Part shown: piece by piece, positions 8,908-16,481 of the stretch
How positions within the stretch are numbered: position 1 is the stretch's first letter
Layout of the letters: the number at the start of each line of letters is the position of its first letter
Source: a virus
Taxonomy: Duplodnaviria > Heunggongvirae > Uroviricota > Caudoviricetes
Virus record (IMG/VR): IMGVR_UViG_2563366825_000024
DNA: 16,481 nt
Strand: one strand, 5' to 3'
The notes under the pieces: generated by a model
Seen by the model: only the letters and a program-made list of their open reading frames with translations
What the model was told of the DNA's origin: nothing
Databases searched by the model: none
Program-made: the position numbers and the translations under genes

Positions 8908-8963
8908 ATCGGCTGAACCTCAGCAACCAGTTGACGGGGACTTTCGTCCCCGTCGCGGTTTTC

Positions 8964-9104
8964 CTACTGCTTACACTGTAAGAACGCCGCAAACTCCGCT
9001 CCCCACAAATTCAGCCGGAACTCACACAACGAGCCGTGTAACATCCAGATGGTGAAGATTACCGTCATACAAATTGTGACGGTGATGAGCGATTTTTGCG
9101 ACAT
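8964..9104 (-). CDS. Hok/Gef-family-like type I toxin, 46 aa small membrane protein (MSQKSLITVTICMTVIFTIWMLHGSLCEFRLNLWGAEFAAFLQCKQ)
   Basis: Not in the ORF track (below its size cutoff). ATG at 9102-9104 with AGGAGG (plus 9113-9118) 8 nt upstream; stop TAG at 8964-8966. N-terminal hydrophobic helix, then SLCE-x-R ... E-x-AAF-L-x-CK, which matches my recollection of the Hok/HokA/PndA pattern. Confidence 0.6.
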   Translation of the reverse strand: MSQKSLITVTICMTVIFTIWMLHGSLCEFRLNLWGAEFAAFLQCKQ

Positions 9105-9288
9105 AGCGCTTGCCTCCTGAGTGGAGAGGCGCTAACCTTCTACTTGCTTAAGGTATGATGGTTAGGGCCTCGGGTTAAACAAAATGTTTGACTCGGGGCC
9201 TTTCCACATCAGGCCTTCAGGTTCTCCCTCCAGCCATCAGCCGAAAGGCACCCGCGCATAATCTACGATTTTTGCCCTGCACGGGCAA

Positions 9289-9314
9289 CAAAAAACCCGC
9301 CATCACAGCGGGTT
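9289..9314 (-). terminator. Putative intrinsic terminator downstream of the Ail/Lom-like gene
   Basis: On the minus strand: AACCCGC-TGTGATG-GCGGGTT followed by TTTTTTG, about 23 nt after the TGA at 9337-9339. Confidence 0.5.
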
Positions 9315-9336
9315 ATGACATGTTGTCGGGTATTAC

Positions 9337-10074
9337 TCAGAATTTCAGGCCAATGCCTGCAAATAAACCATCAGTTTTCCAGTCGCCAGAGCCTGAGCTT
9401 TCATAAGTGACGTCCATAGTAACACTTTCATTGAAGTTAAATTGCGCGCCGACAGACCATGCAATAGACGTTTTTTTGGTGCTGTTACTTTCAGAAAAAC
9501 TACCGGCACCATGATTAAGATTGTCGTTAATTTTCAAGTCAGTGGTGACTTTTGCAACCCCCATGCCAGCCATTGCATACACACTGAGGTATTCGTTAAA
9601 CCGCCACGAAGGACCGGATAGTAGACTCCAGTAATTAGCCCTGATATCAGTTCTCGCTGAAGCTGCCGGGTTTTTTACCTCTCGTGATGGATCGGAAGGC
9701 TTAACATCAATAAATGCCTGCGCATTAGTCATGGAGCGCGCCCATGTAAAAGAGGCTATAACACCCAGTTCATCAGTTATCTCGTAACGATACCTGATGC
9801 TCATCCCCAGGGGGCTTTTGGCTGTGCCGTCATGCCCCCGGGCAATAGCATTTTCGTATTCAGCTGATGAATTAAAATGGTTTACGTTTACAACATTCCT
9901 GAACGTATCCCGGTTATAAACACCCGCGTCTCTAACAAAATCCTTCAGCCCGGGGAAGCGTATGTGTGCAAACCCGAGAGATACCGTACTATCGCCTGAT
10001 GCTGCATTTACCTGTGCAGTTAAGCAACTCATCACCAGAACTGCACACGCAAAAAATTTCATGATACTTTTCAT
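9337..10074 (-). CDS. Outer-membrane beta-barrel protein, Ail/Lom/PagC/OmpX-like (245 aa, longer than typical members)
   Basis: N-terminal signal peptide ending AQVNA-AS. Internal IRYRYE resembles the family signature; C-terminus GIGLKF ends in Phe as is typical for OMPs. True ATG at 10072-10074, second in-frame ATG 4 codons later. AT-rich. Confidence 0.65.
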   Translation of the reverse strand: MKSIMKFFACAVLVMSCLTAQVNAASGDSTVSLGFAHIRFPGLKDFVRDAGVYNRDTFRNVVNVNHFNSSAEYENAIARGHDGTAKSPLGMSIRYRYEITDELGVIASFTWARSMTNAQAFIDVKPSDPSREVKNPAASARTDIRANYWSLLSGPSWRFNEYLSVYAMAGMGVAKVTTDLKINDNLNHGAGSFSESNSTKKTSIAWSVGAQFNFNESVTMDVTYESSGSGDWKTDGLFAGIGLKF

Positions 10075-10153
10075 TTTAAGTATTTCTCTGAATTAAAGGA
10101 TGCGATGTCTGAAAGGAACGCTTTCGTTTTACACTATTAAAGTTTTTCTTACG

Positions 10154-10780
10154 CTAATCATATATTGAGGAATTAATAACCAGAACTTTATCTATATACG
10201 GCTTCCGAATATCCCATGTTGCACGACCGGAATAATGCTCACAGGAATATATTTTATTTCCTGTAGCCCCCGTTGATGTGGTGTAAATCGGTCGGTCATA
10301 AGGTGTACGCTGCCAGTTATAATACCCAACCAGTGCAGGCATAATTGCGCATGGATATCCAAGATCCTTCTCAAACTTGATATCAACTGGTATTAACTTC
10401 GCGTCAAGCAGCATCATTTCGCCATGGTAAATCATCTCACCCGACGGGTTATACATGGCAATACCATACTCAGAAGGTTGAGTAACCATATTCGCAAAAG
10501 CATAAACAGTCGTAACACCAGGATTCGTTCCCCTGACAATTTGATGAAGCCTTAAGGCATGATATCCATCAATCTGTTCATGTGTGTACATGACATCGGC
10601 CTTTTTCTCTGTTCTGATAAAGAAAAAACAACTTTTTCCTGACGGGATTGATGTTTTAAAAAAAGCCTTCTCAGTCGCCGGAATAGTTCCCTTATTGATC
10701 AGACACTGAGGCGTAAACCCCGGGCTTATCCACAAGCTGCCATCTGGTTTCGTAATGCTTAAACCATACATACAACTCAC
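10154..10780 (-). CDS. Hypothetical protein (208 aa from GTG 10780; 205 aa from first ATG at 10771)
   Basis: Track start is GTG, overlapping the TGA of the upstream 68-aa ORF. First ATG (10769-10771) has GGGGGTGA 5-6 nt upstream. Cys/Tyr-containing, no recognisable signal peptide or family. AT-rich. Confidence 0.5.
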   Translation of the reverse strand: MSCMYGLSITKPDGSLWISPGFTPQCLINKGTIPATEKAFFKTSIPSGKSCFFFIRTEKKADVMYTHEQIDGYHALRLHQIVRGTNPGVTTVYAFANMVTQPSEYGIAMYNPSGEMIYHGEMMLLDAKLIPVDIKFEKDLGYPCAIMPALVGYYNWQRTPYDRPIYTTSTGATGNKIYSCEHYSGRATWDIRKPYIDKVLVINSSIYD

Positions 10781-10959
10781 CCCCAGAATGTATAAATATA
10801 TGACCCCATCCCCTGCTCAAGATTCGACCACGTCACCGTATTGCCATTAATGGTTATCTTCGGTACTTTCCGGTCCTTAAATACATTATTCCACGGAAAT
10901 AATGAACAGACTGCCTGCAATGTTTTCCCTTCTGGTTTATTCGTATACGTTTTTGATCC

Positions 10960-10983
<24 letters not shown>
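10777..10983 (-). CDS. 68-aa ORF, possibly the 3' remnant of a gene interrupted by the adjacent IS3-family element
   Basis: ATG at 10981-10983 lies at the IS boundary. The same frame stays open upstream into the IS-derived sequence, so the native N-terminus may have been displaced. Stop overlaps the start of the 208-aa ORF. Confidence 0.4.
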
Positions 10984-13119
<2,136 letters not shown>

Positions 13120-14055
13120 ACAGCGTATTTTGCACAGGAGTCGCTGAAAAATACGCGTTAATCGAACAATGGCGACAACAATTTCCCATTGAAGCGATGT
13201 GTCAGGTATTTGGTGTATCCAGGAGCGGTTATTACAACTGGGTACAGCATGAACCCTCAGACAGAAAACAAAGTGATGAGCGGCTAAAACTGGAGATTAA
13301 GGTGGCACATATCCGCACTCGCGAAACATATGGAACCCGGCGGCTCCAGACGGAGCTGGCAGAGAATGGCATCATCGTTGGTCGTGACCAACTGGCACGT
13401 CTTCGTAAGGAGCTAAGGCTACGCTGTAAGCAGAAACGCAAGTTCAGAGCGACTACGAACTCGAACCACAATCTGCCAGTTGCGCCAAATCTGCTGAACC
13501 AGACGTTCGCTCCTACAGCACCAAATCAGGTCTGGGTGGCGGACCTGACGTATGTTGCCACACAGGAGGGATGGTTGTACCTCGCTGGCATCAAAGATGT
13601 TTATACGTGCGAAATTGTCGGCTACGCCATGGGAGAGCGCATGACAAAAGAGCTGACAGGTAAAGCCCTGTTTATGGCGCTCAGGAGCCAGCGCCCACCT
13701 GCCGGGCTAATCCACCACTCTGATCGAGGTTCACAGTACTGCGCATACGATTACCGGGTCATACAGGAGCAGTTTGGTCTGAAAACATCAATGTCGCGTA
13801 AAGGTAACTGTTACGACAACGCTCCGATGGAAAGCTTCTGGGGAACGCTGAAAAATGAGAGCCTGAGCCACTATCGTTTTAATAACCGGGATGAAGCCAT
13901 CTCAGTAATACGGGAATACATTGAGATTTTCTACAATCGTCAGCGTCGTCACTCTCGTCTGGGGAATATCTCCCCGGCAGCCTTCAGGGAAAAATATCAT
14001 CAGATGGCTGCTTAAAAAAAGAACAAATGGTAGTGTCCGCTATTGCCAGTACACC
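13120..14055 (+). mobile_element. Second, different IS3-family element, 5'-truncated (orfA replaced by IS30); right end approximate
   Basis: OrfB frame is open from the IS30 junction (NSVFCTGVAEKYALIEQWRQQFPIEAMCQVFGVSRSGYYNW...) to TAA at 14013-14015. DDE motifs HHSDRGSQYCA and GNCYDNAPMESFW. Sequence is distinct from the left-hand IS3-family copy. Confidence 0.7.
13197..14015 (+). pseudogene. IS3-family transposase OrfB segment (272 aa from internal ATG), no orfA present
   Basis: Track ORF. The upstream in-frame region lacks the OrfA frame and frameshift window, so a normal OrfAB transposase cannot be made. Confidence 0.7.
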
Positions 14056-15730
14056 TCAGAACCCCGTTCTCCAGCGGAGTGATTTTCACTCCTTTATCTG
14101 AAATATCAACATCCGGCAGCTCACCGGCAAGAGCCATTGCGTTAACTTCTTCCAGACGAGATGCAAGAAGCGTCATACGGGCCTGAAGATATGCATGGCA
14201 ATCAGTCTGCACAGCCAGTTGTAACTGGTCATTTTGTCGGGATTTATCAAATTCAGTGACCGGGATAAGATAATCATCAAAATTTCTGTAACGACGCGAC
14301 CCTTTTACCCAAATATCTCCGGAACGTAACGCCCCCTTGAGTTCATTCAGTACACAAAACTCATAGTATTTTCGATTGATGCCTGAAGGCGTTAATACCA
14401 GTTTTCGCCAGCTTTCAGGAATAAATGCTGTTGGCGCTGTAGGCGGAACGTTACGAAGCTGCTTACGGTATATTTCCCTTATAGTATCCAGTGCATCGCT
14501 GAGCGGCTGCGCCGCAGGTGTCGCTACAAACTGCAATGCTGACAACATTCGTGGAGCGTATTTTCGAAGTGTGCTGTATTTTTCGGTGATCAGGTGAAGA
14601 GGATCGAAATTACCTTTACGGGACAGCAACTGTGTTTCTTCCAGGCTGTTGACGAACTCCTGCCTGGGAATAACATCTTCTATCGCGGCCCAGGGATCTT
14701 CACCTGACTTTCTGGCATGCAGTAGCGCCTGACCGACAGTAACATATTGTCTTAACTTGCTCTGGATAAGTTTGCCTGTTAACTGAAGCCTCTCGGCTTG
14801 TGTGCGTTTTGCCTGGCTGAACAGACCGCCCATAATGCGTTCGTGTAGCTCGATAACTTCATCAGTCAATGTTGCTCTGGCTTCCTGAATGACACAAACC
14901 AGCGTAGCGTAACGTCTGATATCGGTGAATTTTGCCAGATCTCTGCTGCTCATTTTTCGGCCCTCACGCGCCAGTTTGAGTAATTTGTTCTGGTGAACGG
15001 AAAGCTCAATACCATCAGGTAATTCCAGCGCGGTGATAGAATTAAGTCGATCGATATGTTGCAGCACGTTTTTACCGTTAATTTTACCGGGAGGCTGAAG
15101 TAGCCACGCAAGTCGGGAAGGTTGTTCCCCTTCTGATATGAGCAGGCTGTCGAGTGCAGATCTATGCTGCTTTCCCAGTTGTGTCGTAAGTGCCGAAAAA
15201 ACAGATCTGTCAGCAAGTGTGACGGCTTCGGCAAGCGTCCGTTCGATCACATCAACCGACGGGAAAATAACATTATTGTTATGTAGCCAACTGAGCATTT
15301 CCTCCGCCAGAGTAAATCCTTTATCTGTTCGCATGGCATAGGAATGCAGATGCCGAATGCAGTCTTTTTGCAGAGTTCGGCTGAACGGAGATAATTTCAG
15401 GTAGCGATAAAGTTCAGCCAGATGCTCCCAGCGGGTTTGCTCTCTGGCTGCATATTCATGCCATAAATCGGGCTGAAGCTTCAGTCTTGAAGCAATTCTG
15501 GATACAACGCCACAGTGGGGAACATTATTTTTGTCCGGAACAAATCCAGGCCCACGCAGGTAACAGAGTAATACCGCAAAGCCCAGGCGATTAGCTGGAC
15601 GCCGGTGCTTATTAATGAGAGCAATATCTTTATCACAAAGAAAACACATTCTGGTCAGAATAATTTCATCATCTGGTATAACCAGCAGGCGAGCTTGCTC
15701 TTCACTACTCAGTATTTGTCGCCGTGGCAT
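14012..15730 (-). pseudogene. tnpA: Tn3-family transposase TnpA, N-terminal about 556 aa only; C-terminal catalytic region removed at the IS3-family junction
   Basis: Starts MPRRQILSSEEQARLLVIPDDE...ANRLGFAVLLCYLR, resembling Tn21/Tn3-family TnpA N-termini from memory. TnpA-like sequence stops near ...KITPLENG; the last 16 codons and the stop are encoded by the IS end sequence. Confidence 0.75.
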
Positions 15731-15890
15731 GAATGCTTCCCTCGTGTAAAGTTTTCATATGTTATGGATTTGTTGTGACCGAAAACGACCGGTTTCGGAC
15801 ATTGTTAAACAGATATATCCGAAAGTCAGCGAAATTACTTTCGGACATGCATTATAATATGTACACCTATTTCGTACAGAAGATCTCACT
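15731..15890. promoter_or_regulatory. res-like resolution site and divergent promoter region between tnpA and tnpR
   Basis: TTTCGGACAT occurs twice (15793-15802 and 15839-15848). Perfect 9-bp inverted repeat TCCGAAAGT/ACTTTCGGA (15818-15826 and 15837-15845) with 10-bp spacer; imperfect pair GACCGAAAAC/GTTTCGGAC around 15777-15800. Consensus-like TATAAT at 15853-15858, 33 nt upstream of the tnpR ATG. Confidence 0.6.
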
Positions 15891-16481
15891 ATGTCTCGAA
15901 TTTTTGCCTATTGTCGGGTTTCCACTCTGGAACAGACGACCGAAAATCAACGTCGGGAAATCGAAAGCGCGGGTTTTAACGTCAGACCCCAACGAATAAT
16001 CGAAGAACAAATTAGTGGCTCAGTAGCAACCAGTGAACGTCCTAGTTTTAACCGGTTGCTTGATCGTCTGGAAAGTGGCGATGTATTGATAGTCACAAAA
16101 CTGGATCGCCTCGGTCGTAATGCAATGGATATCAGGAAAACAGTGGAGCAACTGACCGAATCTGGCATCAGGGTGCATTGCCTGGCATTAGGTGGTGTTG
16201 ATCTGACCAGTCCGGCAGGAAAAATGACAATGCAAGTGATTTCAGCGGTCGCTGAATTTGAACGAGATCTTTTACTTGAACGAACTTATTCAGGGATAGC
16301 AAGAGCACGGGATGCAGGAAAACGTTTTGGTCGCCCACCGGTATTAAATGAAGAACAAAAACAGAAGGTACTCGAACGCATTAAGTCTGGGGCAAGTATA
16401 AGTGCTATTGCCAGGGAATTCCGAACCACACGGCAAACAATTCTGAGAGTTAGAGCGAAACAGCAAACTGTTACTGTATAG
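15891..16481 (+). CDS. tnpR: Serine recombinase, resolvase/invertase family (196 aa), probable transposon resolvase
   Basis: ATG at 15891, stop at 16479-16481. N-terminal catalytic motif YCRVSTLEQ, then LDRLGR and AEFER; C-terminal helix-turn-helix-like tail. Divergent from a Tn3-family tnpA across a res-like site. Confidence 0.8.

Follow-up and report, generated by a model that had tools for sequence, protein, structure and literature searches.

Several described outer-membrane proteins are related to the product of the gene analyzed here. Yersinia Ail (PDB 3qra/3qrc) and Escherichia coli OmpX (1qj8/1qj9) share an eight-strand topology with protruding loops and are encoded by chromosomal genes, in contrast to lom, which is a prophage gene. 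Salmonella Rck and PagC belong to the same Pfam family, as does the barrel protein Lom of phage lambda (NP_040601.1; PDB 9wso chain C). In two papers (PMC3486847, PMC3430580), adhesion and serum resistance are cited for Ail, Rck and lambda Lom; binding of host factors for such purposes is the classical function of the family and is also assumed in the Stx-phage literature. The nearest relatives are the Lom proteins of Stx phages. For phi24B, the 244-residue orthologue showed similar expression in stable lysogens and in induced cells (PMC3342100). Lom peptides were also found in phi24B virion preparations, where the authors classed them as contaminants; their detection indicates that the protein is made. 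Finally, a cryo-EM preprint of 2026 proposes that gp55 and gp54 of phi24B form a needle-tip receptor-binding complex for BamA (bioRxiv 10.64898/2026.04.10.717836).

The gene studied here lies in a stretch of tailed-phage DNA of 16,481 nucleotides, referred to below as the window. We assign it, with a probability of about 0.88, as the lom gene of a short-tailed, Stx-phage-like prophage (Sepvirinae, phi24B/933W-type) encoding a loop-extended Ail/OmpX-like barrel. The features of the window are listed in the table.

Features of the window around lom (positions count from the first nucleotide of the window; aa, amino acids)
Feature	Position	Strand	Remarks
lom CDS	9337..10074	minus	ATG-to-stop ORF, 738 bp, 245 aa; GC 45.5%, GC3 43%; predicted precursor of an Ail/Lom-family eight-stranded outer-membrane beta-barrel
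Signal peptide codons, residues 1-24	10003..10074	minus	predicted cleavage between VNA and AS, from sequence inspection
Extended extracellular loop L1, residues 40-88	9811..9957	minus	alignments with lambda Lom and OmpX; AlphaFold2
Predicted amphipathic helix in L1, residues 42-67	9874-9951	minus	AlphaFold2
Extended L2 hairpin, about residues 114-147	9634..9735	minus	alignments; AlphaFold2 strands 103-126 and 138-158
AT-rich spacer upstream of lom	10075..10153	minus	79 nt, 31.6% GC; presumed own regulatory region
Intrinsic-terminator-like hairpin AACCCGCTGTGATGGCGGGTT and T-run	9286..9314	minus	22 nt past the lom stop; consensus scan
205-aa gene, phi24B gp54-like	10154..10771	minus	PHROG 425 'membrane associated protein'; GC 41.6%
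93-aa gene, 3' remnant of 68 codons, phi24B gp55-like	10777..10982	minus	PHROG 557; GC 43.7%
Hok/Gef toxin ORF, 46 aa	8964-9104	minus	Pfam HOK_GEF, E 4e-8
sok-like RNA	9093-9253	minus	Rfam RF01794, 42 bits, below the gathering score of 59; E 1e-7
420-aa ORF, intact	5773-7035	minus	
Part of a giant (about 2800 aa) LPD5/LPD38-domain protein	1-5689	minus	typical of Stx2-type phages
IS3-family transposase	10991-11737	minus	
IS30	11961-13112	plus	
IS600	13197-14015	plus	
Truncated Tn3-type transposase with DUF4158	14012-15730	minus	
Recombinase start	15891-		

Pfam PF06316 (Ail_Lom) matched the lom product with 102.7 bits for a cutoff of 23 (E 2.9e-29); family models, whose failure the earlier note had named as a sign against its reading, do recognize the protein. 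This local alignment covers residues 90-245 (profile positions 50-199) and leaves out the N-terminal 89 residues. OMP_b-brl, from the same Pfam clan, scored 54.4 bits. PHROG 108, 'Lom outer membrane protein', aligned over the full length, residues 1-245 to profile positions 1-199 (E 8.2e-71). Among NCBIfam models the best match was the Rck equivalog NF011777 (88.9 bits for a cutoff of 258, E 3e-25), and the OmpX equivalog NF006917 reached 56.1 bits for a cutoff of 176. Judged by these scores, the protein is a family relative of Rck and OmpX and no orthologue of either. Since both scores fall far under their cutoffs, function is not transferable from those proteins by orthology.

The gene is already known. 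Positions 9000-10900 of the window are 100% identical in DNA to several complete E. coli chromosomes, and the same 738-bp CDS is found in E. coli prophages as RefSeq WP_001539074.1, 'Ail/Lom family outer membrane beta-barrel protein'. Matches were present in 441 of 5426 complete E. coli genomes. Moreover, 21 phage records contain a Lom with 99.6% identity to the product; 19 of them are from Stx2a-converting phages and the other two from Escherichia phage Lyz12581Vzw (Sepvirinae), whose copy YP_009907860.1 carries the annotation 'Lom outer membrane protein'. Lom of phi24B (vB_EcoP-24B) and of the 933W-type has the same length (244-245 aa), the same neighbours (93-aa gene, 205-aa gene and hok) and the same terminator. 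The gene itself does not differ from these; only the prophage of the window is truncated by an insertion sequence inside the 93-aa gene. Thus, the window holds a correctly annotated and widespread Lom orthologue, and no new category is called for.

The N-terminus, MKSIMKFFACAVLVMSCLTAQVNA/ASGDS (the slash marks the predicted cleavage), continues as MKSIMKFFACAVLVMSCLTAQVNA/ASGDSTVSLGFAH and has, by inspection, a Lys-containing n-region, a hydrophobic core and V-N-A at positions -3/-1. In an alignment of 18 homologues, residues M1, A24 and G27 show no or almost no variation; AlphaFold2 modelled residues 1-26 as a helix of low confidence. The motif IRYRYE is found at residues 93-98, and the C-terminus reads GIGLKF. 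Inspection thus identifies both a Sec signal and a C-terminal Phe beta-signal, in columns that are invariant in the homologues. The traits on which the earlier note had built its assignment (signal peptide, IRYRYE, C-terminal Phe and a length of 245 aa) are all present in the ORF, and the proposed Ail/Lom-family barrel agrees with PF06316, with PHROG 108 and with the AlphaFold2 and Foldseek results given below.

The length of 245 aa might be an annotation artefact, produced by a false upstream start, a fusion or a frameshift on an ordinary Lom of about 200 aa. The start of the Pfam alignment at residue 90 is what could be expected in such a case, but the other observations point the opposite way. 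Indeed, the signal peptide begins at residue 1 and is directly followed by the conserved beta-1 motif GDSTVSLGFAH, the PHROG profile aligns from the first residue, and every alignment places the insertion after beta-1 and before the YRYE strand. The start column is common to 20 of 20 intact long-type copies, all of 243-245 aa. Finally, L1 has a dN/dS of 0.30, which points to a translated segment under purifying selection. An artefact therefore has practically no chance of being the explanation, and the N-terminal mis-start that the earlier note had considered can be dismissed, along with a fusion or a pseudogene, on the basis of the signal peptide, the start column, the alignments and the full-length PHROG match.

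A structural model was calculated with AlphaFold2 from an 18-sequence alignment (pLDDT 83.6, pTM 0.75). It consists of a signal helix, a strand at residues 29-39, a helix at 42-67, a strand at 73-98 and six more long strands, giving eight strands in total, the second of which is kinked at residues 82-88. The lom product is thus predicted to fold as an Ail/OmpX-like barrel of eight antiparallel strands, joined by four loops on the extracellular side and three turns on the periplasmic side; a topology prediction had been suggested by the earlier note. The best structural matches were Ail and OmpX, with TM-scores of 0.81-0.85 when normalised to the target; the top Foldseek matches in the PDB were Ail 3qrc (0.85) and OmpX 1qj9 (0.84). 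Both proteins were also matched at the sequence level (E 4e-14 and 1.6e-9). Their mature forms count 148-157 residues, compared with about 221 for the protein of the window. A Foldseek search of the BFVD viral models returned generic beta-barrels only (TM about 0.4) and no full-length Lom-like match.

The additional length could be placed by alignment with Lom, Ail and OmpX, where the earlier note had expected it, namely in extracellular loops. The membrane boundaries of these loops are estimates counted from the periplasmic turns. Relative to lambda Lom (206 aa, NC_001416), the protein has about 32 more residues in L1, between strand 1 and the YRYE strand, and about 12 more in L2, and its L3 is about 6 residues shorter; together these changes account for the 39-residue difference. 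Relative to Y. pestis Ail and to OmpX, the protein gains about 37-47 residues in L1 and about 10-20 in L2 and in L3, its L2 exceeding that of OmpX by about 20. Lambda Lom and the protein of the window are only about 30% identical, and the phage tail type and receptor module differ as well; the two proteins share KYRYE, YE(G/S)SGSGDW(R/K)TDG and a C-terminal KF. A literature search on PDB 9wso, the entry holding lambda Lom, returned nothing relevant.

The L1 insertion is conserved and probably helical. In the model, blocks of the L1 helix have pLDDT values of 93, 86 and 67, with 86-93 over residues 41-60, and a second AlphaFold2 model, of a homologue with 44% identity, again placed a helix at residues 41-66. 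Its hydrophobic moment is 0.47, compared with 0.22 +/- 0.11 in shuffled sequences, and the most amphipathic 18-residue segment of the mature protein begins at residue 42. No helix of Ail or OmpX aligned in their L1. With residues 40-90 as query, phmmer had no match at E<=10 anywhere among the PDB sequences, and the Pfam search detected no additional domain in the L1 insert.

We also examined how common such a long loop is. The earlier note had called the protein oversized, which holds in comparison with OmpX (171 aa), lambda Lom (206 aa) and the Pfam model (199 positions) but not within its own lineage, where 243-245 aa is the rule. Indeed, among 80 phage-contig loci of IMG/VR, the intact long-type copies kept uniformly to this range, so the size is normal for the subfamily. 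Full-length close homologues all measured 239-275 aa, mostly 240-247, and about 20 further clusters of 208-250 aa sharing the GLKxxV... L1 insert were found in a library of 50%-identity representatives. Relatives outside this set were searched for in genomes with a 10-sequence alignment. In 17 loci from GTDB species representatives, the long L1 was restricted to Arsenophonus nasoniae and Ca. Phlomobacter; the relatives sampled from Xenorhabdus, Photorhabdus, Proteus, Yersinia and Pectobacterium had a short L1. On these 17 loci, the idea of a long L1 common across the Enterobacterales is rejected, and the long L1 is a minority form of the Ail/Lom family.

The two types differ in their gene neighbourhood. 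In the phage-contig sample, the short-type Lom (199 aa) had a lambda-J match upstream in 56 of 58 loci and Stf downstream in most, whereas the long-type genes with enough upstream flank all came after the 93/205-aa pair. A simple equation of long L1 with short-tailed phages held in the intact IMG/VR loci with upstream flank, but it was broken by three E. coli prophage loci (L164:1-5274, L165 and L166). The lambda-J-like trunk of these loci corresponds to J residues 610-969 only. Behind it come homologues of the 93-aa gene and of the 205-aa gene, then a long-type Lom of 243 aa, then Stf/Tfa genes. Since the long type here stands behind a lambda-J-like trunk, its link is to the 93/205-aa pair. 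This arrangement suggests that the 93/205-aa/lom block replaces, as a unit, the C-terminal receptor-binding domain of J together with the short Lom. Lambda lom and the lom type of the window are alike in that they follow immediately on the receptor-binding determinant of the central tail fibre and are expressed in lysogens, in the second case to judge from the phi24B orthologue.

Other variants of the long type were seen. In three loci (L167:5161-6744, L168 and L169), two long-type lom genes of 244 aa and 247 aa, with products 60% and 45% identical to the protein of the window, stand in tandem after a 93/206-aa pair, and a Fic/PhdYeFM pair comes next. In L006:6969-7667, the 5' end of a long-type lom, encoding the signal peptide and first strand, has been swapped for unrelated sequence; that prophage gave no matches to the upstream 93/205-aa genes, and its lom is apparently a further truncated copy. 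An 857-bp contig (NZ_JPLE01000227.1, L084) of a Xanthomonas pisi assembly contains a piece of lom with 97% identity to the protein of the window, most likely as E. coli or phage contamination.

The low GC content of the region does not set lom apart. Its composition is distinct from that of the phage genes flanking it on the left, which have 50-56% GC, so the earlier note was right to call it AT-rich, though only moderately; the lowest GC values are those of the spacer and of the 205-aa gene. In a complete phage, the low-GC tract starts exactly at the 93-aa gene, and the tail fibre upstream has 50% GC. The three-gene low-GC block also occurs in two other backbones, those of L164-166 and of the tandem loci L167-169, with 36-47% GC compared with 47-61% in the adjoining phage genes. 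Because the tract spans the two upstream tail-tip genes as well, it is no sign that lom was inserted separately. The cargo that the earlier note had thought to be separately acquired is a three-gene module including two proposed tail-needle receptor-binding proteins, which are probable tail-tip proteins, and is no stand-alone lom insertion.

In complete phages, the gene order is tail fibre/needle, 93-aa gene (annotated there as 'outer membrane protein'), 205-aa gene, lom, hok/gef, four small genes and the giant LPD5/LPD38 protein, and positions 1-10982 of the window keep this order. Within the same positions, the otherwise identical prophage of NZ_CM129862 is one base shorter, and its version of the 420-aa ORF is annotated as frameshifted.

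The layout around lom resembles that of a lysogenic-conversion gene (the earlier note had spoken of moron genes), with an AT-rich spacer upstream and a hairpin with a T-run after the stop. The terminator core, ACCCGCTGTGATGGCGGGTTTTTT, is invariant in six divergent lom alleles; the spacer varies in both length and sequence between alleles. A consensus scan of the 79-nt spacer detected no sigma-70 consensus, and we infer its promoter function from the induction-independent expression of the phi24B orthologue (PMC3342100). Right behind the lom terminator, the Hok/Gef ORF and the sok-like RNA just upstream of it look like a type I toxin-antitoxin locus. A Hok/Gef-type locus is conserved in all related prophages.

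The copy of lom in the window survives in a prophage remnant. Homology to the prophage stops at position 10982, where an IS3-family element (junction 10982/10983) cuts the 93-aa gene. From this point, 0.9 kb upstream of lom, insertion sequences are piled up and all tail genes are missing; lom is intact. The right-hand part of the window (10983-16481) had its best matches in E. coli plasmids. The prophage/IS junction was spanned by none of the complete E. coli genomes and plasmids searched.

The window was compared with five related prophages (L007, L010, L012, L013 and L017). Together, lom and the spacer form an island of divergence at about 9337-10182, with DNA identity of 0.59-0.80, compared with mostly 0.85-1.00 in the flanks. 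Identity drops where the 205-aa gene stops and recovers shortly beyond the lom stop. Some alleles are mosaics; that of L010, for instance, has a divergent 5' half and a middle part 97-98% identical. The alleles also reassort relative to their neighbours: a 100%-identical tail fibre was found with Lom proteins of 100% and of 64% identity, and where Lom drops to 64% the neighbouring genes are 87-100% identical. A difference in lom between otherwise near-identical Stx2a phages is mentioned in passing in PMC8456039.

Selection was assessed on 13 distinct lom alleles by the pairwise Nei-Gojobori method, with estimated region borders. Apart from the L1 value given above, dN/dS was 0.12 for barrel codons, 0.18 for L2 and 0.12 for L3, and dS was about 0.65-0.8 over the lom regions. 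No positive selection on the loops was found among these alleles by this method. The lom alleles are thus old, shuffled by recombination and under purifying selection, with no fast positive selection.

From these features and from family knowledge, a working scheme can be proposed. The Sec system would export the precursor, which would be cleaved after Ala24, and BAM would insert the protein through its C-terminal ...GIGLKF signal. The predicted Ail/OmpX-like barrel would then carry an unusually large surface above the membrane, formed by L1 with its amphipathic helix of about 26 residues and by the long L2 hairpin. With its AT-rich spacer and intrinsic terminator, lom would constitute a small unit of its own, and its product is probably made in lysogens irrespective of induction, to judge from the phi24B orthologue, which is a different allele. 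Any effect would be exerted through the exposed loops.

By analogy with Ail, Rck and lambda Lom, the role that ranks as most likely is the binding of host factors, serving adhesion and/or complement evasion, and we put it forward tentatively. For lambda Lom, the adhesion evidence reportedly comes from a single 1997 study, known to us through papers citing it. At the other extreme, Lom might not be a surface protein of the lysogen but a genuine minor component of the virion, carried on outer-membrane fragments or at the tail tip, as its gene position at the end of the tail module could suggest. This is very improbable. An integral outer-membrane protein, of a kind that co-purifies with vesicles, is what the Sec signal, the beta-signal and the membrane-spanning barrel suggest; the phi24B authors themselves regarded the virion-associated peptides as contamination, and the phi24B orthologue is expressed without induction (PMC3342100).

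The explanation ranked a close second after host-factor binding, which we consider possible but somewhat unlikely, is that Lom in the outer membrane of lysogens or lysing cells lowers the adsorption of phages of the same type. It could do so as superinfection exclusion or by sparing the progeny a dead-end adsorption, for example by masking the receptor or by interfering with the receptor-binding proteins of the needle tip. Over-expressed lambda Lom does protect strongly against lambda-vir and not against T7, but the effect required over-expression, lambda lysogens with native levels being unprotected (bioRxiv 10.1101/2025.02.28.640651). The location of lom right behind a receptor-binding determinant, be it J for the short type or the 93/205-aa pair for the long type, is consistent with such a block, particularly as the long type keeps its place behind the pair even in the lambda-J-type tail context of L164-166. 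The low GC shared by the three genes in three different backbones and the proposal that the pair is the BamA-recognising tip of phi24B point in the same direction. However, adjacent genes are inherited together even when no functional link exists, lom alleles reassort freely relative to tail-fibre and 93/205-aa alleles, and an intact lom is retained here although the tail genes are lost; all this weakens the explanation. Decidedly less likely than a general adsorption block is that the long-L1 Lom serves the gp55/gp54-type receptor-binding module of the needle tip as its specific partner in the outer membrane, with the three genes forming one mobile low-GC cassette and the L1 helix acting as a homotypic adsorption block.

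Altogether, lom stands out within otherwise near-identical Stx prophages as a hotspot of allelic diversity that is old and has sharp boundaries. The long L1 insertion defines a subclass of Lom that is so far without experimental characterization and that, in E. coli phages, travels with two genes suspected to encode the BamA-recognising tip of Stx phages. Should Lom be the partner of that tip, the cassette would move between podovirus-type and lambda-J-type tails, the L1 helix might for example shield BamA or capture the tip proteins, and an arms race played out on the cell surface would account for the deep diversity of lom alleles.
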